DNA of 64,000 bases from Daphnia carinata (lineage: Eukaryota), in the NCBI RefSeq assembly GCF_022539665.2, contig NC_081334.1, positions 1,302,001-1,366,000 of the forward strand, in the 5' to 3' direction. The translations under genes were made by a program, and so were the position numbers. The notes beneath the pieces were generated by a model. That model saw only the letters and a list, made by a program, of their open reading frames with translations. It was not told the origin of the DNA and did not search any database. Shown piece after piece: positions 1-60,600 of the stretch (positions are counted from its first letter, which is position 1; the number at the start of each line of letters is the position of its first letter).

Positions 1-3000
1 GGGGTGGCAAGGCAGCACTGAACGTGCACTCTACACCCATTGTGAGCACAAAATGCATTAAGTACCTCCTGAACAGACAGGGAACAGGAAAAGAAAAAAA
101 AAAAGGGAAAATCAATTAATGAAACGTAGGTTTTCCCACGATGTCAAAGGTCGTGTGGGTCTTTACTGATCGCACCGGAGAACCGAGGGGGCTTCTTAAT
201 TTTTTTTTTTTTTTCGAATGCAGTTTGTATGTATGTACGTATCGACGGATGCGGTTGCAAATGAAGCAAACGGATTTTGCGGATGAGCTTTTTTTTTTTT
301 TCTTTCAGAGTTTGATGAGCTTCGGCTTTTTTTGGAATAAAGGGGAAAATTGTGTGGACACACACACATCTCGATTGGACAGATAAAGGGGGTAGACAAA
401 CGTAGGAAACGGATGAAGAATGAAGGAAGGGAGGGTTAGAGACTAGGCAATTGGGAGGAACCACAGAAGATGATGATGATGATGAAGAAAAAAAAAAAAA
501 GAAGAAGAGATGGATATATAGAAAAGAAAGAGAGGGAGAGACCTGCCGGATGATGAACAACTGATTAAAGAGATGCCGCCCTTAATGATCGATTATAGTG
601 CGCTGATGGGCCGAGGGGATCTTTCCCCAGTGGAGGAGGAAAAAAGAAACAACTGCTCGAGAGTAAAAAGAAAAAAAAAGAATAAAGATGATGAAGGTAA
701 GTAGAAAACCAATTCTTACTTTTTACAGGTGGAGTGGGGGGGGGGGGGTGCAGCAGAGAAGATGTGGTCTCTATGCGCACCGTGCGCCGCCATTGTTTCT
801 AAAGGACGAATCAAACAAAAGAAAACAACACACAAAAATTGAGTAGAAAAGAACATAATCATGGTAATAAAAGATCAACACAACACACACAATGTTATTC
901 CCAACGAAAACTCAAAAAGAATTTCGAAAGCAAACAAAACATTGGAAACGAGGGAAGAAGAGCCGAGAAAAATGTAGGCCTTTTTTTTTTTCTTTTTTTT
1001 TTTTGAGTGCTGCGTCAACGTAACACGGAAACCAATCAATACTGCCAGATTGCACCGTATCGTGCTCGTCATATCTTTTTTCTTTTTTTTTTTTTTTTCT
1101 GAAATTGAACCCTGCCTCGGTTGTTTGACGTCGTGTAAAGCAAGTCACCTACCACCCAAAAGCAAAAAACTGGCCCGTTCAAGTGGCGGCGGAGTCCGAT
1201 ACAAGATCAAAAGGAAAAAAAAAAAAAAAAAAAAAAACTGGGAGGGAGGGGGGGGAGGGTTGTGAAAACAAAAAATAAAAAAATCGCTGTGCGTGACAAT
1301 GGAGAATGCAACTAATATAACAAGCCTCCAATCAATGGGCGGCATGTATTTTATAGCTCCACTGGGCTATGGGCCCAACAAACAAACGTCGGTTGTTTTT
1401 TTTGTTTTTTTTTTTTTGCCCGGCTTTGATGCTTTTATCGTTTCAAGAAAAAACAAAAAAAAAAAAAACAGAAAGAAAAACTGGCCGCATCTTATATGGA
1501 TTTTGGGGAACTCTGATGCTATTATAGCTGATACACTTAGTGCTTTGCGTCAATCAACAAATCACGCGACTAGGTAAATGCTTTTTTAAAAGCCTCCATT
1601 TTTAAACCTTCTAAAAAAAAAAAAAAAAAAAAAAAGCTGCAAATCTTATGAATTTTTCCTCTTTCGTTTTTCTTGTTTTGTGTTTTTTTTTTTTTAATGA
1701 GCAAAAATTTTTCATAGGCAGGGAGATGGATGGATGGGCTCGCGCCCAATCAGCAATCTGCCAAAACTGCGTGACATTGTGCGCGTGTTGCGATGTTTCT
1801 TCGCCCAACGCAAAATCTTGTTTGACGGTCGCTATCCAAAAGGGAATGAGAAACTCTCTCACTATACTCTTATTGTATATAGCCGCCGATGTTCTTTTGT
1901 TTGTTTTTTTTTCACGTGCGTGTGCGCGCGCTTGTTGTATAAACCTTTTCAAAGCTAAACATTCATAGAGCACGTAGTGAGAAAAGAAAATAAAGAAGGA
2001 CGAGGCATTGGCTGATCGGGAAAAAAAACAAAAAACAAAAAAAAAACAAGACAAAAAGACGTGAGGAAGATGGACGTTGTAAGGCACGTCCAAAAAGAAC
2101 GGACCCATACGCGTTGCCAATGAAAGACTAGCGAAAACGGGCAAAACGGGCGAGTTCTCTTTTTTTCTTTCTTTTATCCAATTCGAAAATGCAGTAGGGA
2201 TTGAAGAGGAGAAGCAGGGCCAGAAAGGACACGCACACAAAGAGAGAGAGAGAGAGAGAAAAGGTAGGGGAGTAGGATATATCAAAGGCGCCGCTTGTTT
2301 ACATAATAGTGGATTGCGGTCGGTCGACAAACAAGCCGCCCATCAGCGTTGCCTTTTACCTTTCGGCTCCTAGCAAAGCACGTAGAAACACTCTTGTCTT
2401 TTATTCTCTCTCTCTCTCTCTCTCTCTTTTTCTCTGCTGGTTCCCTTTTATTTTTTTTTCTCTCTCTTCTTCTCTCCTTTTCATTTATTGTTTTCTTCTT
2501 TTTTATTCCATTTCTGCTCTCGTCTCTCTCTCTCTCTTGTTCGCTGCGCACACAGACAACAGAGAGAGAGAGAGAGAGAGACACGCACACGCACAATATA
2601 TAGACACGCATGCGAACACACGACGTTACCCGTGCACATAGATACGTAGCATAGCGTAGCATTCAAACGAAAAATTTGCATACATTTCAACTGTTCAACG
2701 TATAGACTATGAGCACGTAACCGGCATGGCACATTCCAGCCGGCCCCATATTCAACAGGTATCTTTAACTATATATATATAGCCGAAACCCCTATATGTG
2801 AATGAGGAACTTTGAGCCCGGCGTCTCTTCTATGGCCAACACTTCCGCAGTTCTTTCGCATTTCCGCCACCTCATTTCGTTTCTCTGTTTTGTCTCTTTT
2901 GAACGCAAAATTTTCATTCGGCCATTTTCTTTTTTTTTTTTAGATTTTATTTGTTTTGGACGTTTTATATAAAAAAAATAAAAGTCCATTCGATTTTCTT

Positions 3001-3710
3001 GGAAAGCGGCCGATTGGCTCCGCTCGCAGATGTGTTGACGCAAATGGATGAAGCCGCGCACGAACGTTGCGTTGGGACTTTTTGGTATTGAAATTTGTTC
3101 AAGTCTGATGGCGTCCCGTCTTTTTATGTTGATCCTTCTCCCCCTTTTCAACCCGAATCGCGATGTTTATCAGGACGCAGACATCAGCGTATGCAAGAGA
3201 CTTATTCGGATCAAGTACATCGGGCCATCGATTTGGATTGCACCGTTGGCCAAGCTGCTGATGTCCCGTCTCGGCTCGCCCGTTTCCTGTTTCAGAAACA
3301 TTGGCCGAATGCTGATTTTTGTCGGATGCATGTCGTGCATGCGTGAACGTCTTGAGCTATAAGCTGCGCGTCTTTCCATTCGATTGTTCATCTCTTATCC
3401 GGGCGAATGCAAAGCCACCCTCAACATATACTTAATGCACGCGCTCGCAAAAAAAAAAAAAAAAAAAACCAAAAAACCAAAACAAAAGAAAACAGAAAAG
3501 CCAAAATGATAAAGAAGAAACCAAAGTCCCAGGGTAGACGAGGGGCCACACTTGAATTCGTTATCCTTCATTGCGTATTTGAATACTCCAAGTCGGAGAG
3601 AGAGACACGCACCAATACATGGCTGTTGTGTGTGTGTTTTTTTCTTTTCTGATATTGTGCAACGTGCCGGCGAAGAAATTAAGTTTGTCTGTGTCTGAGT
3701 TCACATCTAG

Positions 3711-3742
<32 letters not shown>

Positions 3743-6700
3743 GTTTGACTCTCTCGCCCTACATTACGTTCAAACGTACAGGGAAATCAAAATGTGTGTG
3801 TGACCCTGGTCGGAAAGAAAGTATAGGAAAGCAACAACAACATTGCAAAATGCTCAGAGATGTTGTGCAGGGGCGAGAGTGTTAATCACATAATCGTATG
3901 AAATCATGTGCTAGTCGATCATCATCATTCAAACATTTTGGCCCCGACAAACACACACACACGGGTCGTGATTCTTGATTCAAATGACCATCCCTCCTCT
4001 CTCTCTCTCTCTCGCTCTCACTCAAAGAAATGGAGACAAGAGGTTGAGGGCGGACTTCTTTACTTCCACCCTTCCATTTTCTTCATATATATATTTTTTT
4101 TTTTTTTTTTTTTTTTTGCTCTTAGACTGAAATGGCAGCCCCAAGTTTTTCTTTTTCTTTTTCTTTTTTTTTTTTGGCTGAAAAAAAAAAAAGAATCGCT
4201 TCCCCCCCTCAAACGCTGCGCCCTTTTAGAGGCTCTTTAGAAATCGGTTTCCTTTTGGCTGGCTCGAAGAGAGCGCACACCGTGCGCTGCAAACGACTTG
4301 GTCGGAGAGAGAGAAGGTGGGACGAAGGAGGGGGGGGGGGAGAGATCCAATAGCTGTCACTCACCTTCCCATTCAACAGTGCGTTTTCTTTTCTTTTTTC
4401 TACGTCTTTTGAAAATGCTTTTTGCTGCTGCTGCTGCCCTTTGCGGTAGTGTACGATTTTGAAACTGAAGAAGTGCCACACAAGCAATAGCGCAAAAGGT
4501 ATTAGTACCGTGTGTGCCAGCACCCGCCTAATATAACAAGCGAGAGAGAGAGAGAGAGTATGCATAAAAAGGGGCGGAGGAAAATGAAAAAAAGAACTTG
4601 GGTTATTCAAAAATAAAATAAAATAAAATACTGCCGACACTGGTTCTATAGTCAGCTGTACGTGTGTGTGTGTACGATGGGTATGACTGGTGCCCGTGCC
4701 GCCAATGATGCCGCGCATCCGCCACCATGAACGTTATACTATGTTCGAATCCTATAAATATATGAGGGCGAAGAACAAAAGAAGCGAACAAGTTTTTCAT
4801 TTTTTTTTTTTTTCAAGTGGAAAGCTGGGCGGTAGCAAAAAAAAAAAAAAAAAAAAAACGGGTGCGGCTATCTGGGCGCATTTTCTGGAAGCCGATCTTA
4901 AAAGGGTGGGCTAAAAAAAAAAAAATAAGAAAGAAAAAAGTATAAGACATGAAAGGTATTTTTTTTTGTGTGTGTGTGTGTTTTGTTTTGTTTGGTGGGT
5001 TCCAGGTGCTACTACAACTACTACTACTACTACTACCCACTATTAGCATTACTACTTCAATTGATGCTCGTTGTTATACGCCTGCTTCTGCACCCAACGT
5101 CAGCTCCCTTTTTTTTTTTTTTTCTTTTTTTTTTTTTTTTTGCTTTCTATAATGTTAACTCGTCCTATACAAACGTGTGCGTGTGTTTCCAAAGCCTTTG
5201 CGCAAGTCCTCAAGCGAGCGTGCTGAGCGTTATTGCCTCTCTCTCTCTCGCTCTCTGTGGCGCTCGTTATCATTTAGATTTATCATCTCGGCAGTGAGTT
5301 GGAATGAGAGTATTAAGCAAACAATAGGAGCAAGCGAAGCGCATTTTTTTTTTTTTTTTTTTTTATAACGCGGCCATTAGTTTTCCGGTCTGAACCGTAT
5401 AACCTCATCACCTCTCTCTCTCTCATTCTCTGTCTGCTTTCGGAAGGTGTGTTTCTTCCTCTTATTTTTTTTATCAACGATCCCACCACCAGCCATAAGC
5501 TCGTTGGCTATGCCAGGTGAAAATGCTTTGCTTTTGCCTAATACGGGGGGAAGCTGATGTTATTCGCCCTTCTCCTTTATAAGCGCACCATTGTGTGTCT
5601 CGTACACAGATAGTGCTACCTCACCTTACGACCCATGACCTACATGCTTTTTTTATTTATTTTTTTTTTTCCTCACACTTCCTCCAACTACCTGCCTTGT
5701 CGAATTATGGTTACAGTGAGAACGTCGCCATTACGTGTATTTCCTTTTTTAAAAAGGACTTTATTTTTATTTTTTATTTTTGCAAATCAACTCTAGTAGA
5801 GGGTAGGCTAGACCGGTAAGGCACTGCGTGCGAAGAACAAGGTAGATGAATCGAAACGCAGTTGATTAACGTTGCCAGTTCTTAAACAGCAAACGATTTT
5901 CACTTTGAATCTTCTTCTTCTTCGTACGAAAACGCAATACGTTTAAACGGATGGCACATACCTACATGTGTGTTTCACGTATTGGCAAATGCAATATGCG
6001 ATTGTGTACCTGGCAGTTGGACAACACCAACTGCTGAATGGTGAAAGACTTTCTCATGCACATTAGCAGCGGTACTCTTGGCTCTAAAATGATCTTTCAA
6101 CTTATCTCTCGTACATTCCCAACCAACGTTTTCTCTTTACATCTGTTCTCTTATTCTCGTTTTTTTTTTTTTTTGTTTCTTATAATACCGCGACTGCTGT
6201 TGAAAAAAAAAAATAAAAATAAAAACGTGCATACAGTTTTCTTTTTTCTTTTTTTTTTGAAGAGAAACGGTTGAGAGACCAAGATCCAGCCGGACCAAAT
6301 GGCTGAACGCTGTCGGCTCGGCCTCAGCATCGGCAGGGGGTCCACGTTTGTGGTTTGCCTATATACCTCGGCATTATTTATTTAAGGAGCGGAGCTTGTC
6401 GGCGGCACTGCGACTCCGCCGGAGCAAGCGGCCAGCCCCGCTTGGCGGCAAGCGGACGTGCATACATACACATCCACGACACACACACACACACACGCAC
6501 AAAATGAATGGCGGGACACACAGCCTCTGTCCGTTTTCTCTTCTCTATCCCAAAGATGCCTGCTTACTGATACACGCGTATTGTAGGCCTATATGGAAGA
6601 AGCATCTTGTTACACACATCCGTCATGGCATTGAATTCGTTTTTTTTCTTTTCTTTTTTGTGTTAGACGTTAGTCAGTTATCGTAGCTTTCCATGTTGGA

Positions 6701-18179: not shown

Positions 18180-18430
18180 CCTACGATGCGTAACTAAGAA
18201 GTAACTAGATGGCGTTAGAAGCACAGAAGCCTACGATGCCTAACTAGCAAGCAACTAGATGGCGTTAGAAGCACGGAAGCCTACGATGCCTACCTAGCAA
18301 GCAACTAGATGGCGTTAGAAGCACGAAAGCCTACGATGCCTAACTAGCAAGCAACTAGATGGCGTTAGAAGCACGGAAGCCTACTATGCCTATATAGCAA
18401 GTAACCAGATGGCGTTATAAGTACGGAAGC
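18180..18430 (+). repeat. Tandem array, 5 x 50 bp (CCTACGATGCCTAACTAGCAAGCAACTAGATGGCGTTAGAAGCACGGAAG)
   Basis: 50-bp periodicity is directly visible, with few substitutions. Each unit contains ACYAGATGGCG. Confidence 0.95.
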
Positions 18431-21022: not shown

Positions 21023-21170
21023 GCTCCAGAGATGGCGTACAAATTGCCAGTATGCTCCGGTATTTGACAGTTTCGACCGCCAGAGTGCTCTGGAGAATTG
21101 ATATGTTAATAGCTAGGCCCTATTAACATCGGAGCCTACTGGCAATTTGGTGTTATGCTATCTGTGGAGC
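21023..21170. repeat. Imperfect inverted repeat, ~45-bp arms
   Basis: CAAATTGCCAGTATGCTCCG (21040-21059) matches the reverse complement of 21130-21149 at 19/20. Outer GCTCCA...TGGAGC also pair. Confidence 0.8.
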
Positions 21171-24062
21171 CTAATGTCGTCTGTCATGTCTGCTGCTTGA
21201 AATGTAAACTGCTAAATTCGTTTTTTCTTAACTCCGCTTGCTGTTTTCCCGTACACGTTAGCGTAGTCCTGAGCACGTACTGAACTCCACGCTGACAGTC
21301 CTTGAAAAAACTTAGAAGTGCCGTGTAGCACGTGGATCAGAAATATCGGGATTCGACTGACATTCGTAGGTATGAATTTTTTTTTCAACTCCCAATTGTC
21401 CACAGTAATCAGTTATTCTTGGCTTGCAAATCAATAGATAATCTTAATATCTGATTAATTTAGAGATGGACAAATTTTGTTTGTCTTCGAAAAGATTAAG
21501 ATTTTAGTATTGAAATTAAACATCTGCCTTCGTTTTGATCTCTATATAATCTAAATAATAGACTGTTTTGTTCTGATATGAATTTTTCTGTCCAGGTTAC
21601 TTTATGTTGATGGACTTCGATTACAGCTGTAAAACTATACCTAGTACTTTAAGCATTTACAACACAAGAGCAATATTGAAGTTTCTATAAAAAATGCACC
21701 AGCATTCACAAGGGAGTGGGTTCACAGACTGACTAATGTTTTGATTTTGCCCTTGATCTACATAAGTTGTCTTTCAAACGGTAATATGATGTTTTATGGG
21801 CACCGTGTATAAAAGATCTTCATCAGCATTCCAGAAACTTCTTCACCGCAGCAGTTATCCTTTGGTAATAATCAGAAATTCTATGCATTTACGGAAAGAT
21901 CGAGGAATGATTGCTACAGGAACATGTATGAACCCTCAAAATCAGGTGTGATTTTGATCTCAACTCCTTTGGCCCTACGTTACCAACATCCTTTGGGTTA
22001 AAAAGCTACGCCTGAGAAATTTCATTAAGGAAAGATCAAATGTATTACTTTCTTTCGTTTGCAATCGGTTTCTCACTTCTAAGGTGCCACCAGCAAACTC
22101 AACAACCAGAGGAGTGCTAGGCATTTGCGGGTGAACGTGAAAATAGTTGACCGCCTGTTAATTGTAATTCCGAATTTTGCTTAAATTTTTATTTTCAATG
22201 GTGCATATACATAGTTGAGTTGCTGGTAATTGTAATAGCCATCATCCTCTGTTAAGTCCTTCAAAAATCGTAAGACCTATCAAGGTATAATTTTTCTGAG
22301 AACATTAAGAACCATCTTTGTTTCCTTCTAATATTTTTCTTCTCTCTAGGTTATTTCATGTTGAAAATTTACATTACGCCGAAAAATACACCAGCAGTCA
22401 GCCACCAGACAGTAGGTTTAAGAGGACTACCTTGCCTTGCTGAAAGTGTTAGGTTTCCCTAGGATCTGCGTCATCCGAAACATTCGACTGACTGTCTCCG
22501 ATTACGTATCTGCTGAAAGTTAATATGTCGTTGTATCGGGCAAGCAAGCTAAAGAAATAAAGTAAGATAAAACGGGGGGGGGGGGGGTTATAAATTATAA
22601 AACATGCTTCTCTGTTTGGGCCGATGCGACTTTTCTTTATTCGACGGAACATGCCATTTCAGTTGTGCCGATGGTTCGTGTTTGTGGTAAAACTGGCGCA
22701 TATTAGCTGATTACCATTCTTCCTTAGACAATGTCTTGTTTGTCACTCGTCCTTTATTTCTCGCAATCCCTTTCGGACAGCATCTTGCATGAGAAACTTT
22801 CACAGGGGAAATAGATTATCCGCTAATTTCTCTGGGATACTTTCAGCGTGTTTTATACTCTTTATATTTTATCGTTTGACTGTAAGGACTGGCGCGGAAA
22901 ACTAATGTCGTTCTTTTTTTTTTGTCATTTTCTTTGTTAAATTGTTATAAGCGCAAAGGGCACACAGGTGTACGCAATACCGGACCGCTTAGGTTTTAAA
23001 TGAAAATTACTATGTCCTGTGGTTTGGAATCATTATATGGCCGCGTATTCTATGTTGTATTTTCATTGGAATACCTAGGTTTTTGAATAAACAACCTGTT
23101 CCCTAATTCCTTTTGATTCGTTTTTATTGTGGTTGTAAACAAAAAAACTAGATGTCGCAGGTGTGGTTCCAAAATGGTGTTGTGATTACGTGTGACAGTG
23201 ATGTGAGCAGTGAAATCTGTGTTTGAAAGTTTTTGTTAAAAATGTTTTATTCCAGTGGGAAGTTATAAAAAAACTAACTACTATTAAGTGTTCTATTCCC
23301 TGTGAAGTTTTTGGAAGTGAAGCACACTAAATAGTTCATTTTTTATGTAACAGGCAATCTTGCAAGCTACCAATTCCAAACAGTGACAGATTGCTCTGCT
23401 ACAAAACTATGACCTTAGCATTCCAACGTGCTACTCTGTTGCTCTTTTTAGAGGTATTTTACTTTACATGGCCCTTAGTATACCATTTGGCATGATTCCG
23501 ACTTTAAGATCTAGCTTGTGAAACTTACAACAGGAAAAATGCTAACCAAGAGGAAGTACACCAACGAAGTGAATTCTTGGAATCATTACACCACTGTCCA
23601 ATTCGACTACCCTTTGCCCTAGTCATAAGAATCAGTTTTATTGTGGTAAATGCATCATGTTGCTCTTTGTTTGGTTTCCAATGAGTAACCACTACCAATC
23701 AACACACACAGACATGGACATCAAAACCAATCCCTTTTGGTATTTTATCTTGGAGGTTTATTTAGTATTGCTTTTTTAAAATTTATTTTCCCATTGTAGG
23801 GCTGCCAAGCTTTCAAGTTCTTCAGCCGAAATTACCAGCCCTTCAACTTTTGCAGTCTTCGAACAACAGGCTTAAGTAATTGTGTTCCCTGTTATAATTA
23901 CACCAATAATCTTATATTCCACATGTAGTCACACGTTTGTTTTCATATTCATTACTTAGAACTATGCCATCGTCTTCATTCTCACGCAAAATTGAAACAA
24001 AAATTCTAAGTTTTGCCCGTTCTTCGCTCCTTCATACGTCGTCACCAGGCTTTTCGCCCTGT

Positions 24063-24256
24063 CCGTCGCCCAGTCTTCGCCTCGCCCGTCGCCCCGTCTT
24101 CGCCTCGCCCGTTGCCCCGTCTTCGCCTCGCCCGTCGCCCCGTCTTCGCCTCGCCCGTCGCCCCGTCTTCGCCTCGCCCATCGCCCCATCTTCGCCTCGC
24201 CCGTCGCCCCATCTTCGTCTCGCCCGTCATCCTGTCGTCGCCGCGTCCGTTGCCCC
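24063..24256 (+). repeat. GC-rich minisatellite, ~8 x 23 bp (GCCCCGTCTTCGCCTCGCCCGTC)
   Basis: The tandem units are directly visible. Confidence 0.95.
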
Positions 24257-24314
24257 TTGGTCATCTTATCTGTGTGGTATGGTTATGTTTTGTAATGTAT
24301 GTAATGTATAATGT

Positions 24315-24633
24315 AAACTAACCCGTTGGCTGCCACCCACCTTTTATCCCCTTTTTTTTTTAGCTTGACAGGGACGGGCCGCGCTGTTCTGCTCCATGGT
24401 CTATCTGCCATGGGGTGGAGCAGCGCCACTGCCCAAGATTGGCCGAAAGGCCTGTAGGCAATGCACCACAGGGATTCCCTTGATCGATGCGCTTGATGAG
24501 ACCTGGGGTGTGCATTCCCGTAAAGGTCTCATCATCGTGTCAGCCCGGCCCCCCTGGCCCCCTTTATCGCTATCCCTAAGATAGCGATGTAGCGACTGTA
24601 GTTAAGATGGCGTGGCAGCCAACGGGTTAGTTT
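24315..24633 (+). ncRNA. Candidate structured RNA/ssDNA module A, enclosed by a perfect 22-bp inverted repeat
   Basis: IR 24315-24336/24612-24633. A 19-bp stem 24381-24399/24408-24426 has 4 G.U pairs on the + strand. Also a GGCC-GAAA-GGCC tetraloop, an 11-bp stem 24494-24504/24524-24534, and loop-loop complementarity AATGCAC/GTGCATT. Confidence 0.6.
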
Positions 24634-24763
24634 TAAGTGTATGTATGTATGTATGTATTGTATGTGTATTATGTAAAGTGGTGGATTTGAGGGTGGAAGG
24701 AGGGAAAATAAAAAGATTTTTAATTATTTATATTTGTATTTATTTTATTATATGGTGAATGAT

Positions 24764-24822
24764 TTGGGGATCGAACCCAAGGAATCTCACACGCTTATCA
24801 CGTGCTTTACCATCAATCTAAC
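24764..24822 (-). pseudogene. tRNA-like repeat (degenerate A box and B box)
   Basis: Minus strand reads TAGATTGATGGTAAAGCA...GGGTTCGATCCCC. There is no intact cloverleaf. Confidence 0.55.
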
Positions 24823-24918
24823 AACTATTCATTATCTATGAAAAAGCTATCCCATAATAACCTTGTATAGAACTCATTTCAACATACCCATAAAAATCTA
24901 AAGTTAGGTATGTAAGAA

Positions 24919-24988
24919 CAGTGATGGTACAAAGGTAGTGTGCTGGACTGTAGTGTTGAAGGTCTGTGGTTCAACTCCCAGGCCGGGT
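24919..24988 (+). pseudogene. tRNA-like repeat
   Basis: TGGTACAAAGGTAG...GGACTGTAG...GGTTCAACTCC has tRNA-type A/B-box spacing, but the stems are broken. Confidence 0.5.
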
Positions 24989-25127
24989 GCTATTGCTTGA
25001 CCGCCGATAAGCGCCCTAAAAGTTTCTGGAATGACGGAATCTGCATGAAGCCATCCGATCGTCGAGGAGAAAGAATTTCGTTATTTTGACATTTAAGGGC
25101 GTTTTGTGAAAAATATCGTGTCATATC

Positions 25128-25195
25128 GACTCTAAGTATTGAACCCTTAACCTTCGGATTCTGAAGCCGATGCTCTACCACTGAGCCATTTCACG
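25128..25195 (-). pseudogene. tRNA-like repeat (GAGCATCGGC type)
   Basis: Minus strand reads TGGCTCAGTGGTAGAGCATCGGCTTCAGAATCCGAAGGTTAAGGGTTCAATAC. Confidence 0.65.
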
Positions 25196-28100
25196 TATTT
25201 TAGTATTACTGTTACTAATAGCGAATGTAGGAGTAAGATTTGGACTTAGAAAAATAAAAGCAAACTGCCCTTTCGTTCACGGTCCATACACTGGCTCACT
25301 ACGCTGAACGCTTACCTTCCTTTGCCTGTACATTGCTTGGCTCGGAAGATCGTAGCCAGAACCCAGGCCCCTTGCCCAATGTGACAGACGTTTTTCAATT
25401 TTATCAGATATTGTACATGAGTTACAGAAAAATCCTAAATTTTTCTCTAGGGTATTTTCTACAGTACCGACAGCCCTTTTTCGTTTCTTCTGTCATTCGC
25501 CTGTGACGATGCTGACAAATTTTTCGTCGACAGAAAATTTGTGCATTTGACATGAAATTACAAATACAGCAAACAGAAAATAACCGTCTTATTCGTTATT
25601 TTCTATTTTTTTACAACCAAACCCACACAGATGTTGTATCTGTACATATAATTTGACTATATACACATGGCTTAGAATGGGAGACAACAATGAGATGTAA
25701 ATATAAATAATGTGTTCTACTTAGCTCTCAATTTCAGAAGAATGGAAGAAAAGAAAAAAATTACTGATTACTCACACGCGCAAAAAAAGAAGTCGTTTCC
25801 AGAGCAATTCTAGTTGTAAGCAACACCCTATTCCTGATGTGATGATTGCAGCAAAGCTCAGAAAAGGATCCATAGCATAACTCCAGACTGCAATCAAATT
25901 CACTGCTACTCACTTTCTGATCATTAATCACAAAAGTCGACTGTTGTTGAATGCAATAGGACAAATGCTGCAGGTGGAACTCAGTAACAACTGGAAGTGG
26001 AATAAAATGAACACACCAGTAGCTAGTACAGAAACACATGTAGCATATTCAAGTTGGTGAGGTGCATAAATTATTTGTTGCACACTAGTCAATGGTAGGT
26101 GCACTAATAGATTATCACTTGAAGAGGCTAAGCCTTTAACAAATCCTAAAGCCAAATGACATAACTTTAGACTAATAAACCATACTTCCATATAATGATT
26201 AAATAATACTTGCCTTTCTTACTCTTAGTTTCACACCATTATTGATATTGTCCTAAACCTTTTTCATCAATACCTTCCACACTTTTACCGCTGATGTAAA
26301 GTTGCTGACGAAGTCAGGAAAAATTCCAAGATCCACATTTATACGGATCTGATTTAATCACAGCATCACATGCACTCTGGTTTCAGCAATGAGAACAAAC
26401 CTATAAATCATTCTTGGCGTAAACATTCTCTGAATTCCTACTTTCTTTTTGCAGTGTTCTACAAAATACAACAAATGTTTTACTAAAATTAGAAAAGTAA
26501 ACTAACTTCGAGGAAAGCACTTGCCGTATACAACATCTTCAACGGCAAACAATAATCCTGAAGTCCCGGGACGCCTAGATGGTAAAATCCTATCCATCAG
26601 ATTTATTTGTATGGGATATACATTCAGATCTATGTCTACCGTCACGTCTGTCATGCATTTTCCACTGCACACGTGATTGGGAATAGCAGCTGTACAAACT
26701 TTGTAAGACTAATCGAATATGGGCTAGCTGTTGTTTTTGATGAGGGATCTCAATCACGAAGCTGACTCTTGCTTGCAGATGTGTTTGTCTATTTGAAGGA
26801 TTACAAATTTAATTGATTAGACGCAACGAGGTCGTCTACTTACCGAAAGCTGATTTACTAGCATTTTGCCTCGGAAATCACCCTTTTTCACACCGAGTCG
26901 CCCGACACAGCTGTTCTAATTTTCCCAACAAGAGATTGACAAAACCAAATTAATTTAAGTATGAAATATACAGCCATAACAATCCAGGTCTGCCAGATTT
27001 CGTATAAAAATCAAAATCTTACCTTTGAAATGCAAACTAAGAACGAAATGAATAGATAGAAAATTCGATTTTGAAGACCACTTTTGTTCGTGTCTGTCAG
27101 TACCGAATAGTTATTCATATCACTGTAAAGCCTTTAAATATTTCTGTAACCATGTGACTTCTTTAAACTACCTTAAGTTAGAACTCTGCAGAAAAACTTC
27201 TTCAATTACCTATACAGCAGTTCCTTCACATGTTTAAGGGAATTGCATTTCCTGCAAAGGCAAAAAGCATTAATGTAAAATTTTTACTTATCCGTTCTAG
27301 TAAAAATAAATTACTTTCAAGCAACTCCTTTGGGCATACATGCACTGGTTAAAATCATCCACCATTTTCACCGACCATAGACAATTTCAATTCAATTGGT
27401 ATGTCAATGCAAGTATCACAAATTCACCTGGGATAAATGGTATGCTCAGAAACCCCTTGAACAGTCTATGTAGTATCAGTCTCTCATACCTAAATACCAC
27501 AAAAGAAGTATCTCACAGCACATAGGCAATTCTTTAGGCATACATCCACAGGTTAAAAATTATTTGCATTTTAACAACCCAAAGCCAATTTTATTCAGGA
27601 GTGTATGTATGTCAAGGAAAAGATCACAAGAATCTCCACTTTACCTGGAAATAAACAATATGCTGGTCATTTCTCATTCACTGCAACATAATACATTTGA
27701 TGGTATTATAGATTGACTACCTGTATAAGGCATTACATTACAAATGTTGCTAGAAAACAATGATAACCTAAGAAATAGTATTTCATTCAAGTTACTATGA
27801 GAGTTCTATTAGTATGCAACTCACCTTAAGGAATTAAATACTTTAATGTTGCACAGCCAGCGCTATGTTTCACCACAACAATATCCAACAAGTAATTGTA
27901 CCTGAAAGACCACAAAACAGATGGAAAGTTGTAAACTACAGTACAGGTGATTTTTCCCACATCAATTACTTACAGAAGTAGTGTCCCTGTGGTTTACTAC
28001 ACGAGTCAAGAGGAAATTAGCTTACAAGTTCAAGCATTAACTTTAATTGTTAAGTAAAAATACCAAGATGTGTGGAAGTGAAATTATCCATGTCACAGCT

Positions 28101-28426: not shown

Positions 28427-28654
28427 CCATCCAGTGGACGAAAAGGGAAGTAGCTTGCTTCCATCTAGTGGACGAAAAGGGGAGTAGCTTGCTTGCCATC
28501 TAGTGGACGAAAAGCGAAGTAACTTGCTCGCCATCTAGTGGACGAAAAGGGGAGTAGCTTGCTTGCCATCTAGTGGAAGAAAAGGCAACGAAAAGGGAAA
28601 TAGCTTGTTCGCCATCTAGTGGACGAAAAGGGAAGTAGCTTGCTTACCATCTAC
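28427..28654 (-). repeat. Tandem array, ~6 x 35 bp (CCATCTAGTGGACGAAAAGGGAAGTAGCTTGCTTG)
   Basis: Units start at 28427, 28461, 28496, 28531, 28566, 28612 and 28647. The minus strand reads CCACTAGATGGCR in most units. Confidence 0.95.
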
Positions 28655-31033: not shown

Positions 31034-32812
31034 CAGTGTTTCCACTTTCCGCAAAGGTATCCCTAGAACGTTGCCAGACTTTAAAAAAATAAAATCCCCA
31101 GAAAAATCCCTGTTACTTTCATGGCATACTCACATGGCCTACTATAATAACGGCCTGCAAGCGGCCTGCAGCGCCCTGCAGCCTAAAACTGCATTGTAAC
31201 ACCCCAAACTTAAACACTGTTTGGTAACGAATTTTCCGGAAATGGGAAACGAAAAACAGTGGAAAGTGGAACCTAGCACCGGTGTTAGATACAAAAACTT
31301 ACGGGTAGCGAATTGGGTCACATATCCCGATGATAAGCTGCCTGCATCCACGAGCCGTCTTTCAGGCCGTGGGGAGGCTAACGAACAGCCTACGTTCAAC
31401 GCTCACCTTTTCTCTACCTTTCAGCTTGTGGTTCGATCTTCAAGGTAGTACAGTACTACAGATCGATTTTTAGCCTGGCAAGGCTATTTTTGCCAATTTT
31501 AGCCTGGCAAGGCTTTTTTTTGGTGTGCCATTTAGCCCCTTTATAGTAGGCATGGCTCTTCTTTTTTCTCTTTTCTTTTCTCTCTTCTATTTTTCTTTCT
31601 TCTTGTTTTCTCTTCTTTTTTCTCTTTTCTTTTTTCTCTCTTCTTTTTTTTTTTCTTGAAGGCTTAGAATCTTGCGTCTTGATCTGTTGTAGAAGCTTGC
31701 GTAATCCGATGAATCTTGCGTATCTTGAATGAAGATTTGGAGGGAAAGGGAGGGGGGGAAATTGGCGGTGTCGGGACTTGAACCCGGGGCCTTCAGAATG
31801 CGAAGCGAAGGTGGTAACCACTGTGCCAGGACCGCACACCTCAAACAAATTTATTTTTCATCGACCTTCGTTCTAATACCGGAACTATATAATATGTGAC
31901 TAATAGTGGTGTCGCGCTGTGATAGGGCGCTGTGGTATAGCACTGAGATCATACGTCGACTGTCCGTGTTCGGTTCTTATAGACGCCATTGCTTCAAAAA
32001 TTTTTTTATTATTTTTATAAATGTAAATAAAAAAAATAAAATAACCCATTTTATTTATTTTAGAACAGTATTAAAAAAACACATTTTTAAAGCAATTAAC
32101 CAGTGTCCGTCAAAGCCAAACAAGTTACCAGAAAAATTTAAATTGGCTATGGAAATAAAACCATCGGATTGCCCCATCATATTTGTTTAGTTAAGCAATA
32201 AAGATATGGTTTTTTCCAAAAATAATTGTCATCGAACTTTCAACGTTATAAAGCCTCAAGAGAATCACAGCGTTTCCCAATGAACAGTGTGTTGCTCACC
32301 TAGATAACAAAATTGTGTGAGAGGCCTCGGGTTCATCATGTCTCAACAACACATTGTTCATCATGGTTGAACAAAATAGATTCGTAATTCCTACGTATAT
32401 ATTCAAGGAACTCTCCCCAGCTTTTGCAATTGGGTCAAGTGCTTGTCAGAAATTCAGTCGGAGACTTGAGTCTTAAAAAATTCGGCGTGCGATATGTTTG
32501 GCACAGACGTTTGGAGGATCAAATGGAGTTCGTGGTGTATCCTAGTCAGTGTTACTTTCTGAAAAGCGTACCGTTCACCATTGTCCGCTTGGTGGCTCTT
32601 ATTGAGGAACATTTTACTTTTGACGTTGCATAGAAGCGCCAAAAGCAACAGCGGTTTGGCCAAAAATCTCAAAATCCCGAGAAATCCCCAGAAAATTAAA
32701 TAGGCCCTGGATAATCCCGGAAACCCTAGATTTCCATAACTGCACCCTAGATTCCAAAAATTTTCCTTAAATCCCCCTAAATAGGGTAATATCCCTAGAA
32801 GTGGAATGGCTG
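31034..32812. mobile_element. Non-autonomous cut-and-paste DNA transposon (hAT- or P-type)
   Basis: 8-bp TSD GCTGTAAC at 31026-31033 and 32813-32820. Imperfect 14-bp TIRs CAGTGTTTCCACTT / CAGCCATTCCACTT. Subterminal ATCCCTAGA/AAATCCCCAGA motifs occur at both ends. No transposase ORF. Confidence 0.8.
31763..31835 (-). pseudogene. tRNA pseudogene / tRNA-derived repeat (CGC anticodon-like loop)
   Basis: 73 nt GCGGTCCTGGCACAGTGGTTACCACCTTCGCTTCGCATTCTGAAGGCCCCGGGTTCAAGTCCCGACACCGCCA. A and B boxes are present; acceptor and anticodon stems are mismatched. Confidence 0.7.
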
Positions 32813-54058: not shown

Positions 54059-54800
54059 AAAAACACTGAGAGTGCATTACCATTAAGGTATGAGGTAAAG
54101 TAATAGAGTATGCACATTGTCTAATGAGAAGTACCATCTTGTGTTAATAAATCCAGTACAACAGCAATCCTTTATAGTTCTGTCACAGCTAGAAACCTCA
54201 AATAATTCTGCTTCTCTGTCTAAAGAATAACTTGTCCTTTACGTTCAGAGTGTTGGTGAAACTGGGTACTTAAATGGCCCTAAAGATGTTTTAATTTTGC
54301 TGCCATTGCAGAGATGAACATCATACATGGACTCTTTAGGTATGAAAGGATTTTTCTTCAAATAGTTTTGAATTTATGACGAAGAATTTCTCCTCCTTTT
54401 TGCCAACCAGGTCTAATCTACCAAAAAAAAAATTATCCAATAGGAAAGGATTTTCATGTACTGGGAACACAACTATCAACAATGCAACATTGTACAGGTG
54501 CTAGTTTATCATTCAAGAGCCTTATACAATGATGTTAATCTGCAATTTGTATGTCCTTCCCCAAGCTTCCACCAGAAGTTGAATCTATGAGTCATGTAAG
54601 TTACATGATCAACAGTTGATATGTTTAACGGTGTTGTTTTTCTTTTCTCAATATAGGTTAATAGTAACATTGGATCTGAAAAAATTCTTGGTTGGGGCAA
54701 GACACTGAATAAATTGTATTGATTGGATGGATGACATGACATTTCTATACTTAATTCGGATTCCCCAGACGGTATTTGATATTTAAAAAATTGAAGTGCA

Positions 54801-55135
54801 TATCTGGGCTCCCTTCTTTTCTGAAGCCCCGTTTCCCCTTGACTCGTAATAAGCCCGTAGGGGGTCATGCCCCTACTGTACGGTATATATAAAAACAACA
54901 TATACCGAGGTTTGGAGGGCTCTGGCCGGAAAGGGGACGTGGGGTGCCGCTTAGTCCGATGATGTGTTCACGGAGGGCTCTGTGGCTACCCACAAATCCG
55001 AACTAAAGGTTAATCGCTCCTGTAAAAATGTTCCAAATCTTCAGCTCTTCTTCCGGCTTCTCTTAGCCAATCACCGGGTAATCTCCCCGGTGGGTCAACA
55101 AGGCAGTGTCTCCCCCTGCCTGGGTTGACGGCAAC
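54801..55135 (+). ncRNA. Candidate structured RNA/ssDNA module B, copy 1
   Basis: Stem 54826-54840/54931-54945 has 14/15 pairs with 3 G.U on +. Hairpins lie at 54857-54876, 54881-54907, 55072-55092 and 55094-55129. It is a GC-rich island in AT-rich DNA. Confidence 0.55.
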
Positions 55136-55460
55136 TTTTGAAAGGGTTATTGTGCCTTTTTAAAGTTGCAAAAATAATTGTAATGTGCAGAGAATTGTCA
55201 ATAAATTTTTTTTTATAAAATTTTTTTGCAAAATTTGTTTCCTTCATTGTCTGTGTTCACACATTACATTTATCAACTTTTTTTTTATTCAGCTTGCGCA
55301 ATTCAATTTTATTGTTTTTGCCACCGTTGTATCGTTTATCTGTAAGTATTCAATTATTATTTATTACACTTTTTGAATCCATGAACTTAGACAAGGAACA
55401 ACGTGTAATACCTTGATATTTTCTGAAGTAATTTTGTATTTGTATATTGTTTTACTGGTA

Positions 55461-55868
55461 CGGGAATCGATCCTCAGACATTCAGCGTGCAACGCCGATG
55501 CTCGAACATTGAGCCACGAGATATATATAAATTTTTTATTATCGCATATCATATGTTATCGTCTAGGATGTTTATGCAGTCTTTCACAACTATATGTTTA
55601 TCTTTGTATCGCTTTTATAATGTCCATAGCTCTGTGGTAGAGCATTCAGCTGCGATAACTGTTACCCTGGGTTCAAACCTTACTAGATGTATAAAAATCT
55701 ACATCTAAATGGAGAAAATAATATTGCAGTATTGCATTTCAGTTTTATTCAAAGTGTAAATGCAAGTCCGCAAGTGACTAGAAAAAAGCCAACTTGACAT
55801 CATATGATTCATGGCTCATTGGTAAAGCATCGGCGCGGAATGCCGAACATCTAGGGTTCGATCCCTGG
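55461..55868. repeat. Cluster of three tRNA-like repeats in the palindrome spacer (55461-55519 -, 55625-55685 +, 55810-55868 +)
   Basis: A-box-like TGGCTCAATGT/TAGCTCTGTGG/TGGCTCATTGG and B-box-like GGATCGATTCC/GGTTCAAACCT/GGTTCGATCCC occur at tRNA spacing. Confidence 0.7.
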
Positions 55869-56117
55869 ATAATAATTGAATGCTTACAGATAAACTATGC
55901 TTACAGGAAACAATGCTTACCATTAAACGTGGCATAAACAATAAAATTGAATTGCGCAAGCTGAATAAAAAAAAAGTTGATAAATGTAATGTGTGAACAC
56001 AGACAATGAAGGAAACAAATTTTGCAAAAAAATTTTATAAAAAAAAATTTATTGACAATTCTCTGCACATTACAATTATTTTTGCAACTTTAAAAAGGCA
56101 CAATAACCCTTTCAAAA

Positions 56118-56452
56118 GTTGCCGTCAACCCAGGCAGGGGGAGACACTGCCTTGTTGACCCACCGGGGAGATTACCCGGTGATTGGCTAAGAGAAGCCGG
56201 AAGAAGAGCTGAAGATTTGGAACATTTTTACAGGAGCGATTAACCTTTAGTTCGGATTTGTGGGTAGCCACAGAGCCCTCCGTGAACACATCATCGGACT
56301 AAGCGGCACCCCACGTCCCCTTTCCGGCCAGAGCCCTCCAAACCTCGGTATATGTTGTTTTTATATATACCGTACAGTAGGGGCATGACCCCCTACGGGC
56401 TTATTACGAGTCAAGGGGAAACGGGGCTTCAGAAAAGAAGGGAGCCCAGATA
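56118..56452 (-). ncRNA. Structured module B, mirror copy in right arm
   Basis: Reverse complement of 54801-55135. Confidence 0.55.
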
Positions 56453-57194
56453 TGCACTTCAATTTTTTAAATATCAAATACCGTCTGGGGAATCCGAATT
56501 AAGTATAGAAATGTCATGTCATCCATCCAATCAATACAATTTATTCAGTGTCTTGCCCCAACCAAGAATTTTTTCAGATCCAATGTTACTATTAACCTAT
56601 ATTGAGAAAAGAAAAACAACACCGTTAAACATATCAACTGTTGATCATGTAACTTACATGACTCATAGATTCAACTTCTGGTGGAAGCTTGGGGAAGGAC
56701 ATACAAATTGCAGATTAACATCATTGTATAAGGCTCTTGAATGATAAACTAGCACCTGTACAATGTTGCATTGTTGATAGTTGTGTTCCCAGTACATGAA
56801 AATCCTTTCCTTTTGGATAAAATTTTTTTTGGTAGATTAGACCTGGTTGGCAAAAAGGAGGAGAAATTCTTCGTCATAAATTCAAAATTATCTGAAGAAA
56901 AATCCTTTCATACCTAAAGAGTCTATGTATGATGTTCATCTCTGCAATGGCAGCAAAATTAAAACATCTTTAGGGCCATTTAAGTACCCAGTTTCACCAA
57001 CACTCTGAACGTAAAGGACAAGTTATTCTTTAGACAGAGAAGCAGAATTATTTGAGGTTTCTAGCTGTGACAGAACTATAAAGGATTGCTGTTGTACTGG
57101 ATTTATTAACACAAGATGGTACTTCTCATTAGACAATGTGCATACTCTATTACTTTACCTCATACCTTAATGGTAATGCACTCTCAGTGTTTTT

Positions 57195-57926: not shown

Positions 57927-59060
57927 TTTTCAATTGTTCCACCAGCCACGCGTTATTCTCCATCCACGCTACTGAACTAACTGCGAATGGCATCCAATGG
58001 ACTGAAATTGCCTACGCCAGTAATAATGAGTCTGAGCGGTAGATGGCTACGTGTCGGAAAAAAAGAAAAAAGTGCGATTTTTAATTTTTTTTCCGCCATT
58101 TTTTTTTATTTTTTTTATGTAAAACGGATTGCCATACATATCCCTGTCCTCTCAAAAGCGATGTGGCCAACACTATGCACTCCATCCATGAGTATTCAAG
58201 GTATCTATTTTTACGGTGTGGTAAAAAGGCTAGGTTTTTAACTTGTGTATTGATACATTTCTAAACAGGATTAGTTGCAAGTTGGTAGATCGCGTCTTGT
58301 ATGCTAACTTGCTAACAGCCATGGATCTAGGTAATTTTTTTGGAATTTACTAGTAGTATTCAGGCCATAGATTTCCATATGTTTACCATATAGGTATGAG
58401 CAACCACAAAGGCTTGGGACACTGGTTACATGTTGTTTTGGTGCATACCTAAAAAAAGTGGAATTTATGAGCTGTTTGACATGACTGTTCTCTGTTAGCA
58501 AACTTGGTTTTTATGTACATCAAAACTTAATACCATTTAACTCAGATATAGCCATCACAGTTTAATTTAAATATTTTTTATTATCATTTTTAGCTCAAGT
58601 GAAAACAAGGATGATGGTTGTTGGAATAATTTTTGCAACAGCTGCGTTTCTGAAAGTGAATGAAGTGTCTGTTTGTTTGGTAAGAAGCAGTGTTTTTAAT
58701 TTGTGTTATTTATCTTGACTGGTACTCGTTAATGATCACTTTCAATATTCTAAGTAGAAATCCGTTTGAAGCCTTTCCCAGCAACAGTCCATATGACGCA
58801 CGCGAAGTAAAGTACAGGAAACAATATGTCGGAGTATCAGGCAGTATCAAGTGGTCTATTTTACCAAGCATTAGCATCATCTAAAACTCAAACACTATTT
58901 GATTTTGCTAAAGATAGTGTATGGAAGAAGATATGGGAAAGTGTATTGATGGATGCATGCTGCCAAAAAAAATTATATTAGATGAAAGGACGACCGAAGA
59001 TCTCCGGATTCATTCATTTTCTCCAATGTTATGGTATTTAAATTAATATATTTCAGTGTA

Positions 59061-59374
59061 TATCTGGGCTCCCTTCTTTTCTGTGGCCCCGTTTCCCCTT
59101 GACTTGTGATAAGCCCGTAGGGGGTCATGCCCCTACTGTGATCAGCAGTAACGGTTGTGAGTGCGCTGTCCGGAAAGGGGACGTGGGGGTCCCCATGGTT
59201 CGATGATATCATTGGAGGGCTGTGGGGCTACCCAAAAATCCGAATTAACGGTTAATCGCTCACGTAAAAGCTTGTCCGCAACCTTCGCTCTTCTTCCGGC
59301 TTCTCTTAGCCACGCACTGGGTAATCTCCCCGGTGGGTCAACTGAGGCAGTGTCTCCCCCTGCCTTGATTGACC
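59061..59374 (+). ncRNA. Structured module B, diverged copy
   Basis: Clearly homologous to 54801-55135. The main stems are retained, internal segments are replaced, and the flanks align only weakly. Confidence 0.55.
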
Positions 59375-59542: not shown

Positions 59543-59860
59543 GGTGGGACTCGAACCACCAACGAGATTTTACCATCACAACGCTCGTGAATCTTAACTG
59601 GAAATCATCACACATTACACATTACAATTCAACTCATTTGGGATTCGAACCCTAGACTTTCGACTTACGACGCCGATGCTCAACCACTGAGCCTTGAGTT
59701 TTGTTTGTTTGTGAATATTTCTCTATGTCACCAAAAAACGAGTGATTACTTAAAAAAGTACTGGAAGATACAAAAGTCAACGATATTAGGGGAGGATAGA
59801 TAGCTCAGTGATAGAGTATTGGCTTGATAAGTTAAATGTCGAGTGTTCAAACCGCAGTTT
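59543..59860. repeat. Cluster of tRNA-like repeats (B box 59543-59560 -, 59640-59697 -, 59800-59860 +)
   Basis: Minus strand GGCTCAGTGGTTGAGCATCGGCGTCGTAAGTCGAAAGTCTAGGGTTCGAATCCC; plus strand TAGCTCAGTGATAGAGTATTGGC...TGTTCAAACC. Confidence 0.7.
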
Positions 59861-60600
59861 GGTGAAATGAAGGGGAAAAAGATTTTAGTATTGCACGAAT
59901 TATTCATTGGTGAACGTATCTTAAGAAGTTGTTATAACTAGAAAGTTTAAAACTGATTTCATTGCCGGTACATCAGATAACATTCGGTTTAGCCACGAAT
60001 TACTGAAATAAGCGGTCAACTTACGAAAAATAGAAAAAAAAAGGTGGGTCAAAAGACATTTAGTAGTCCTGTAGTCAATTGATCAATGAAGAAAACAGAT
60101 GATGTTCAATAAGGATGTGTATATCCGATAATTTTCTGTACCGACAATACTGAAATATATTAGGTAAGTACAAAATAGGTGGAAGGATACTCAAAAAGAA
60201 ATTTACCCGTAGGCTTCCAAATGGATTGTGTGCGACAAATATACATAAAAATAGCAGACAGCTGATCAGGTAAACATTCTGGAAGTGGGCAATTAGAAAA
60301 ATCCACTATAAAATTTACAAATTCAATTAGAGCTTCTCATTTCATATAACTTGTTGGGTTTTCTTTTGTAAGTAATACATGGGGAGCTAAAAGGACCATA
60401 GCCGGAACCTAAAGTGAACAGCAACACTGATCACATTCACCTCGTACTAACACACAACAGTACGGCTAAATTACAACCGAATTGTTTATGAAGAATTTAA
60501 ATTAGAGATTTTTCCGTTTAACCTCTGCCTTACTTCCCATCATGAGCAGTGATAATCAAGGCGGTAGGTAACAAAACCGTGATGATGAAAGCAAATCAAA

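Follow-up and report, generated by a model that had tools for sequence, protein, structure and literature searches.

Does a short stretch of Daphnia carinata DNA that folds strongly on paper encode a structured RNA of its own, or is the fold one part of a larger element? Positions 24315-24633 of the window (the whole 64,000-nucleotide stretch analysed here) had been read from the letters alone as a multi-branch fold with a GNRA tetraloop and a possible kissing-loop pseudoknot, perhaps an undescribed RNA class. We refolded this module, compared it with sequencing runs, metagenomes, viral contigs and RNA families, and looked at what surrounds it.

Folding of the module

The module is a real, strongly folded 319-base stretch. 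The plus strand of 24315-24633 has an MFE of -164.3 kcal/mol (z -10.8, equalled by none of 100 shuffles), and the most stable 150-nt interval of the 64 kb lies within it. Its parts, and those of the repeat around it, are as follows.

24063-24256 (+): 23-bp minisatellite, 8.4 copies, upstream and in the same repeat (TRF; joints in run X1)
24297-24363 (+): predicted short intron of 67 nt, alternative donors at 24277 and 24306, enclosing the 5' arm (host-trained PWM, 14.4-14.8)
24315-24336 (+): 5' arm of the 22-bp closing stem, kept in homolog L003 with 3 G.U
24318-24322 (+): CTAAC branch-point-like motif in the 5' arm
24342-24363 (+): polypyrimidine tract and AG, 3' splice-site-like (acceptor score 8.5)
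24376-24434 (+): conserved core hairpin, a 20-bp G.U-rich stem (24381-24426) closed by GGGC/GCCC (folding, comparison with L003)
24441-24452 (+): 4-bp hairpin with GAAA loop; stem ends reciprocally variable in X1, loop unconserved, none in L003
24451-24472 (+): alternative hairpin displaying loop 1 (CAATGCA, 24459-24465), sharing bases of the GNRA stem (folding)
24486-24541 (+): 6+11+4-bp hairpin with loop 2 (TGTGCAT, 24509-24515), subfamily-specific, none in L003
24565-24589 (+): 10-bp hairpin, with a two-sided change at 24571/24583 in one X1 contig
24612-24633 (+): 3' arm of the closing stem
24634-24752 (+): 3' tail with TATG-type repeats, AATAAA at 24707-24712 and a T-rich end that aligns with where the L003 insertion stops
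24753-24829 (-): A/B-box repeat, tRNA-like, with its CCA directly at the aligned end; the plus strand reads TGG..., PBS-like

Most of the stems described in the sequence-only reading are there. The 22-bp arms of the closing inverted repeat match perfectly. The G.U hairpin has 20 bp with five G.U and no A.C pairs, the 19 bp and four G.U given earlier being the same stem minus its last pair. GGCC-GAAA-GGCC forms with a pair probability of 1.0, the 11-bp stem (24494-24534) carries its 6-bp extension with two G.U pairs, and the hairpin given as 9 bp has 9-10 bp. The inner closing stems held up less well: their pair probability is only ~0.5, and the MFE takes GGGCC/GGCCC instead of CGGGC/GCCCG.

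The G.U pairs had also been taken as a sign of selection on a single strand. Each strand's own MFE contains G.U pairs (12 on plus, 10 on minus), and the preference for the plus strand is confined to the two long hairpins (-43.5 vs -29.7 and -28.9 vs -22.0). With DNA parameters it is the minus strand that is slightly more stable (-83.2 vs -78.4). Selection on the plus strand at the single-strand level is plausible from sequence comparison, with 15 of 16 hairpin pairs kept in a diverged homolog (see below), but the minus strand folds almost equally well (MFE -161.7, z -9.1). Cytosine is absent from the plus strand of both flanks (24634-24752 and 24271-24317) and makes up 29% of the paired module.

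A larger repeat with many variants

In one public DNA run (X1), 153 contigs match 23937-24639, covering 18 of 30 bins (23937-24232 and 24270-24639), and 64 lie on the module alone, with many variants. Runs X2, X6, X8 and X10, compared with the region, gave no contig each. Among the ten joints listed for X1, six connect the upstream 23-bp minisatellite with the module; in the other four the 3' arm follows an interior that is shorter or differs. Summed depth, which is not equal to copy number, was ~1000-3200 at 24332-24450 and ~12 at 24553-24603, with ~170-410 across the kissing-loop domain. Judged by its sequence, the module is part of a larger, many-copy, non-coding repeat with an acceptor-like tract and a poly(A) signal, which the sequence-only reading had overlooked. 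No second copy of the module was found within the 64-kb window, and a two-sequence covariance model gave no additional copy in the window or in L003 and no match to repeat family B (described below).

Of the 68 X1 variants we considered 40, and the 37 of these inside the arms were compared with the MFE pairing: 8 keep a pair, 16 are unpaired and 13 break a pair. Two positions among the 13 have a reciprocal change at the partner (24441/24452 and 24571/24583), and three variants disrupt the 11-bp stem, where none of the 40 supplies a change at the partner. Those at 24387 and 24393 convert G.U to G-C in the core hairpin. The commonest variant, 24360 T>G (1848 of 2520 depth, 73%), leaves an acceptor ending in ...TTGTAG, and 24345 T>G creates a branch-like motif outside the arm.

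A diverged homolog

A metagenome scan returned four loci, of which only L003 is a true homolog; L004-L006 (58% GC) are chance 20-base matches. The full-length copies compared are thus two, that of the window and L003. Both arms are conserved in L003, with 17 Watson-Crick, three G.U and no A.C pairs, and all three deviations are G.U on one strand. Also retained in L003 are the pyrimidine tract with its terminal AG, a 16-bp hairpin rich in G.U and the ~120-nt tail, AATAAA included. The interior between the arms is 275 nt in the window copy and ~106 nt in L003, with a homology score of 73 against a shuffle maximum of 62 (0 of 1000 shuffles); the tails are identical in 78 of 121 columns (0 of 2000 shuffles as high). 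The element does not end at its arms, because homology continues ~120 nt past the 3' one, to AATAAA. Upstream, the two copies are unrelated (score 113, shuffle mean 122).

The core hairpin of L003 keeps 15 of its 16 pairs (8 the same, 6 changed on one side, 1 on both sides, 1 broken), and short motifs border it in both copies. Random placement of the nine substitutions leaves at most one broken pair with probability 0.001-0.048, under a null that ignores strand-biased C>T and A>G changes. Such biased mutation is suggested by the window tail, which is C-free (0 of 119, vs 12% C in L003), and most changes between the two hairpins are C/T or A/G. A shuffle control of the kept pairs gave 248 of 500, which is uninformative for two sequences. 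Taken by itself, the L003 hairpin is no more stable than its shuffles (z +0.81).

The GNRA hairpin and both loop hairpins, which the sequence-only reading had singled out, are missing from L003. In X1 the last base of GAAA is T in 640 of 792 depth units (three contigs). With the GNRA loop altered in most X1 depth and the whole domain absent from L003, the ribozyme-like features are subfamily-specific, and on this comparison the GNRA/kissing-loop domain is not the conserved core of the module. AATGCAC and GTGCATT are complementary, as had been claimed, but the ensemble does not place AATGCAC in a hairpin loop (unpaired probability 0.16-1.0). The hairpin that would display loop 1 (24451-24472, -6.4 kcal/mol) competes with the GNRA stem because C24451-C24452 are common to both. 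Just five nucleotides lie inside both loops (ATGCA/TGCAT), and both contain the palindrome UGCA. The chance of a 7-mer match for these given loops is 0.0096, uncorrected for their post hoc choice.

Further scans gave no relatives. Viral contigs yielded two chance matches and 107 matches to the short core motif, none homologous beyond 18-21 bases; further viral-contig scans, prokaryote genome scans and phage BLAST gave no homolog. A prophage-like contig (L114) has a stem of its own, unrelated in sequence to the module: ~21 bp (z -5.2) at 5001-5138, over the start codon of a small secreted-type ORF. We found no paper on the element among titles and abstracts, and Repbase or Dfam may already catalogue the family.

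A predicted intron enclosing the 5' arm

We trained a splice model on 19 host introns from two genes (55-106 nt, median 72), for which leave-one-out scores of true introns were 0.5-17.2. It scored 24297-24363 at 14.4, 24277-24363 at 14.8 and 340-286 of L003 at 15.2; scores of at least 14 occur in 2.3% of 684 non-genic background bins. The intron signal lies at the same place in both copies (55-87 nt), has the 5' arm inside, and would rank in the top third of the 19 host introns. In L003 the predicted unpaired probability of the arm drops from ~0.35 to 0.03-0.08 when the 3' arm is added. For the window copy, the branch motif is predicted to pair with upstream sequence before the 3' arm is made (unpaired 0.03-0.09), which weakens a simple kinetic switch. 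The 3' arm contains a donor-like GTTAGT (24626-24631), the complement of the branch-like motif of the 5' arm; a back-splice from it to 24364 may yield a 262-nt circle.

We see about an even chance that the module is an RNA-level signal in the terminal repeat of a retroelement (LTR or Penelope pseudo-LTR), with a closing stem that would likely set the ratio of unspliced to spliced RNA. Transcription and splicing of the repeat, like its element class, are what we infer rather than observe. Transcribed from the plus strand, the RNA would run from the tandem repeats through the predicted 55-87-nt intron with the 5' arm, the AG, the hairpin domain and the 3' arm to AATAAA and the end. The 22-bp stem would pair the branch region of the intron with the downstream exon; splicing would compete with closure of the stem, and part of the RNA would stay unspliced. 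Splicing would remove the 5' arm and let the RNA refold, while unspliced RNA would keep the closed form and be copied into new insertions. Under this proposal genomic copies retain the intron because the closed unspliced RNA is the template for insertions. The GNRA/loop-loop domain would have been added in one subfamily, where it may serve RNA dimerisation or packaging.

Element class and ends

The L003 copy is a discrete insertion at 62-1008 (947 bp) that starts with TGTAAC and ends in an imperfect inverted copy of its start. It cuts an ORF which we take to be transposase-like (948-1712, with 71 homologs across invertebrates and fish and no Pfam family); homology of P0045, P0048 and P0074 begins at 1011, and the only named close match is a Daphnia magna protein (56% identity), so that the flank of L003 looks cladoceran-like. 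The junction is compatible with a 7-bp exact or a 4-bp imperfect duplication. A length of 947 bp is consistent with Daphnia LTRs, since the D. pulex LTRs reported in PMC2996953 reach 938 bp (gypsy) and 1735 bp (BEL).

The window copy is less well delimited. Its start was not located, its end is non-canonical, and we found no clean TG...CA pair with a target-site duplication (18 AT-rich candidate pairs, none decisive). The 64 kb, with their single module copy, showed no paired LTRs around a PBS, gag-pol and PPT. RT, integrase and GIY-YIG had no Pfam match in 109 frames (at least 62 aa; 17-34 kb and 49.5-64 kb), and neither a linked RT and GIY-YIG ORF nor partial tandem copies, which would point to Penelope, were found in the window. 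Its Pfam matches are a gamma-tubulin complex component, an importin-alpha-like repeat protein and zinc fingers (animal genes with short introns). A cladoceran retroelement likely has this repeat as its terminal repeat, either an LTR or a Penelope pseudo-LTR, and the window may hold a solo or truncated LTR copy. The CCA of the tRNA-like unit at 24753-24829 (-) falls exactly at the aligned end, and the plus strand there resembles a PBS spanning a whole tRNA, possibly by chance.

Family B and other repeats of the window

A second family, B, has three copies in the window: 54771-55129 (+), 56124-56482 (-) and 59033-59373 (+), with B1 and B3 ~80% alike. They show the order of the module, i.e., a short-intron signal ending in TTAG, two hairpins and AATAAA, with intron scores of 12.3 and 11.8 (background 6.7%). 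In sense orientation the two families are not alignable (3 of 200 and 11 of 200 shuffles score as high); in antisense one comparison was matched by 0 of 200 shuffles, at a low score. It seems doubtful, as a model, that both use a new splicing-coupled device, in which a retained intron would close the 22-bp clamp on a modular domain replacing the hammerhead, possibly self-cleaving, in at least two unrelated cladoceran families beside tRNA-like clusters.

The inner ends of an 1822-bp inverted duplication (53503-55324/55929-57749, 99.6% identity) carry family B, and its 604-bp spacer holds three tRNA-like units; it is either a recent inverted insertion or an assembly artefact. The tRNA-like clusters lie at 24756-25198, 55451-55872 and 59629-59864, with a weaker one at 31772-31979. 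Their eight clearest A/B-box repeats are 123-495 bp 3' of a copy of the module or of B, and the first unit of each cluster is on the opposite strand. A profile built from these eight repeats gave only weak extra matches elsewhere, and ARAGORN at low threshold gave noise. The window also contains 50-bp and 35-bp tandem arrays (18180-18430 and 28427-28653), a foldback with 25-bp arms (21040-21149) and a 340-bp inverted pair (53244-53581/57802-58143).

Known RNA classes and alternative explanations

Searching Rfam, as the sequence-only reading had recommended, gave no family at the gathering threshold for the window module or L003; the only matches, both far under threshold, were mir-645 (25.6 of 90 bits) and PAGEV (13.8 of 61.1 bits). 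Hammerhead ribozymes, including the minimal type of Penelope-like elements, have CUGANGA and GAAA boxes flanking helix II and an NUH site. The misfit to them, earlier noticed by eye, is borne out: the sole near-CUGANGA box of the window copy is buried in a Watson-Crick stem, and its GAAA lies upstream without fitting helices. Our own descriptor of an HDV-like fold (a nested double pseudoknot with a catalytic C), run without a positive control, had no match in six of six strands, and Rfam was negative. The 5S-derived, twister, SECIS, Tf1-type self-priming and DIRS ICR classes were dropped by eye against their consensus features, Rfam again being negative. In an ENE triple helix, G-C pairs flank an internal loop whose two strands are both U-rich; here the MFE shows a one-sided pyrimidine tract, interrupted by 24360 T>G in 73% of X1 depth. 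Helenus (TRIMp3) has tRNA-derived A/B boxes within the LTR; here the tRNA-like units start at 24753, beyond the aligned end, and L003 has no tRNA match.

What else could account for the module? An undescribed self-cleaving or tertiary-folded catalytic RNA might, by analogy, take the place of the hammerhead in Penelope pseudo-LTRs and cut near the end of the element. The module would lie after the 3' end of an intron and before AATAAA, like the Penelope hammerhead (PMC4209133), and the Naiad elements of PMC8557442 are described as lacking a canonical hammerhead. The missing Rfam match, the motifs beside the core hairpin in both copies and the complementary loops fit as well. Yet L003 keeps the arms and one hairpin only, with neither GAAA nor a CUGANGA-like box on its sense strand, the GNRA loop is not kept in X1, and the kissing hairpin competes with the GNRA stem; with the only CUGANGA-like word of the window copy buried, we consider such a ribozyme decidedly unlikely. 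A MITE nested in the larger repeat, its arms being TIRs read by a transposase and its interior variable filler, would explain the perfect arms with TA near both outer ends, the differing interiors (four of ten listed joints in X1; 275 nt vs ~106 nt in L003) and the nearly equal folding of both strands. A MITE would, however, end at its arms, whereas here the flanks are shared on both sides (the 3' one homologous in L003, the 5' minisatellite linked in X1), the arm deviations of L003 are all G.U on one strand, and the interior hairpin and acceptor are kept. This makes a MITE unlikely, although the closing stem could have originated from one.

The hairpins might instead be dsRNA substrates, for Dicer/Drosha small RNAs or for editing, with the G.U excess arising from strand-biased mutation or editing. 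The 20-bp stem with its 6-nt loop, the mir-645 match, the prevalence of C/T or A/G changes between copies and the C-free tail agree with this. It accounts for neither AATAAA nor the conserved acceptor, nor for the position of an arm within a predicted intron, and the mir-645 match is far under its threshold; we hold it quite unlikely. A single-stranded-DNA element of the Helentron/HINE kind, the arms being its subterminal inverted repeats, appears highly improbable. Short inverted repeats do adjoin a microsatellite, the minus-strand DNA folds slightly better, and the arm core presumably resembles DINE-1 subterminal repeats. But Helentrons and HINEs have a stem-loop just 3' of the last subterminal repeat; within ~80 nt outside either arm we found no terminal stem-loop (four of four flanks no better than shuffles, in both copies), and homology extends to AATAAA. 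The preferred reading remains a signal in a retroelement terminal repeat.

Comparison with known systems

Several systems share single features with the module. The ENE of the LTR retrotransposon Evade, as described in PMC12501189, also has a tract rich in U that lies upstream of the poly(A) signal within a structured 3' region, but the module has a single U tract, interrupted in most X1 depth and C-rich in L003. Helenus/TRIMp3 (PMC10886601) is likewise a non-coding LTR-type repeat with tRNA-like A/B-box sequence nearby; the units here are outside the aligned end, in both orientations, with none in the 947 bp of L003, and the first part of that paper's Results lists no crustacean family. The 5' RNA dimerisation signals of Ty1 (PAL palindromes, SL1-SL4), as presented in PMC6844567, resemble the palindromic, mutually complementary hairpin loops of the module in a terminal region. 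In that study the palindromes mattered, whereas the proposed SL1-SL4 kissing loop was unsupported by its own data. The likeness is one of structure, and the loop domain of the module is subfamily-specific.

Closer is the solo or 5' LTR of a Daphnia Gypsy or BEL/Pao element (PMC2996953): L003 has the TG start, the imperfect inverted end and the 947-bp length, and there are tandem repeats upstream, AATAAA ~40 nt before a T-rich end, and TGG after the aligned end of the window copy. Unlike for these LTRs, neither a partner LTR nor internal genes were found for the module, nor a clean target-site duplication, and we found no literature report of an intron-spanning closing stem in Gypsy or BEL LTRs. 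The pLTR of Penelope carries a 75-bp intron that genomic copies retain and most transcripts have spliced out (PMC2377424), and it ends at helix I of the hammerhead (PMC4209133). The module shares with this pseudo-LTR (also PMC8557442) a terminal repeat in which a short retained intron, here predicted, abuts a structured RNA; inverted duplication, often seen in Penelope-like elements, also occurs with family B in the window. It differs in having no hammerhead core or RT/GIY-YIG ORF, in a 22-bp stem that spans the acceptor, and in the LTR-like ends of L003.

In its working, the module would by analogy come closest to the intron-plus-structured-RNA unit of Penelope pseudo-LTRs or to a structured LTR R region. 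[quoted passage not shown] If the module is only the structured LTR of one water-flea repeat, the gain for repeat annotation would be modest; if this mechanism is true, the stem becomes a candidate stand-in for the hammerhead in terminal repeats that have none.
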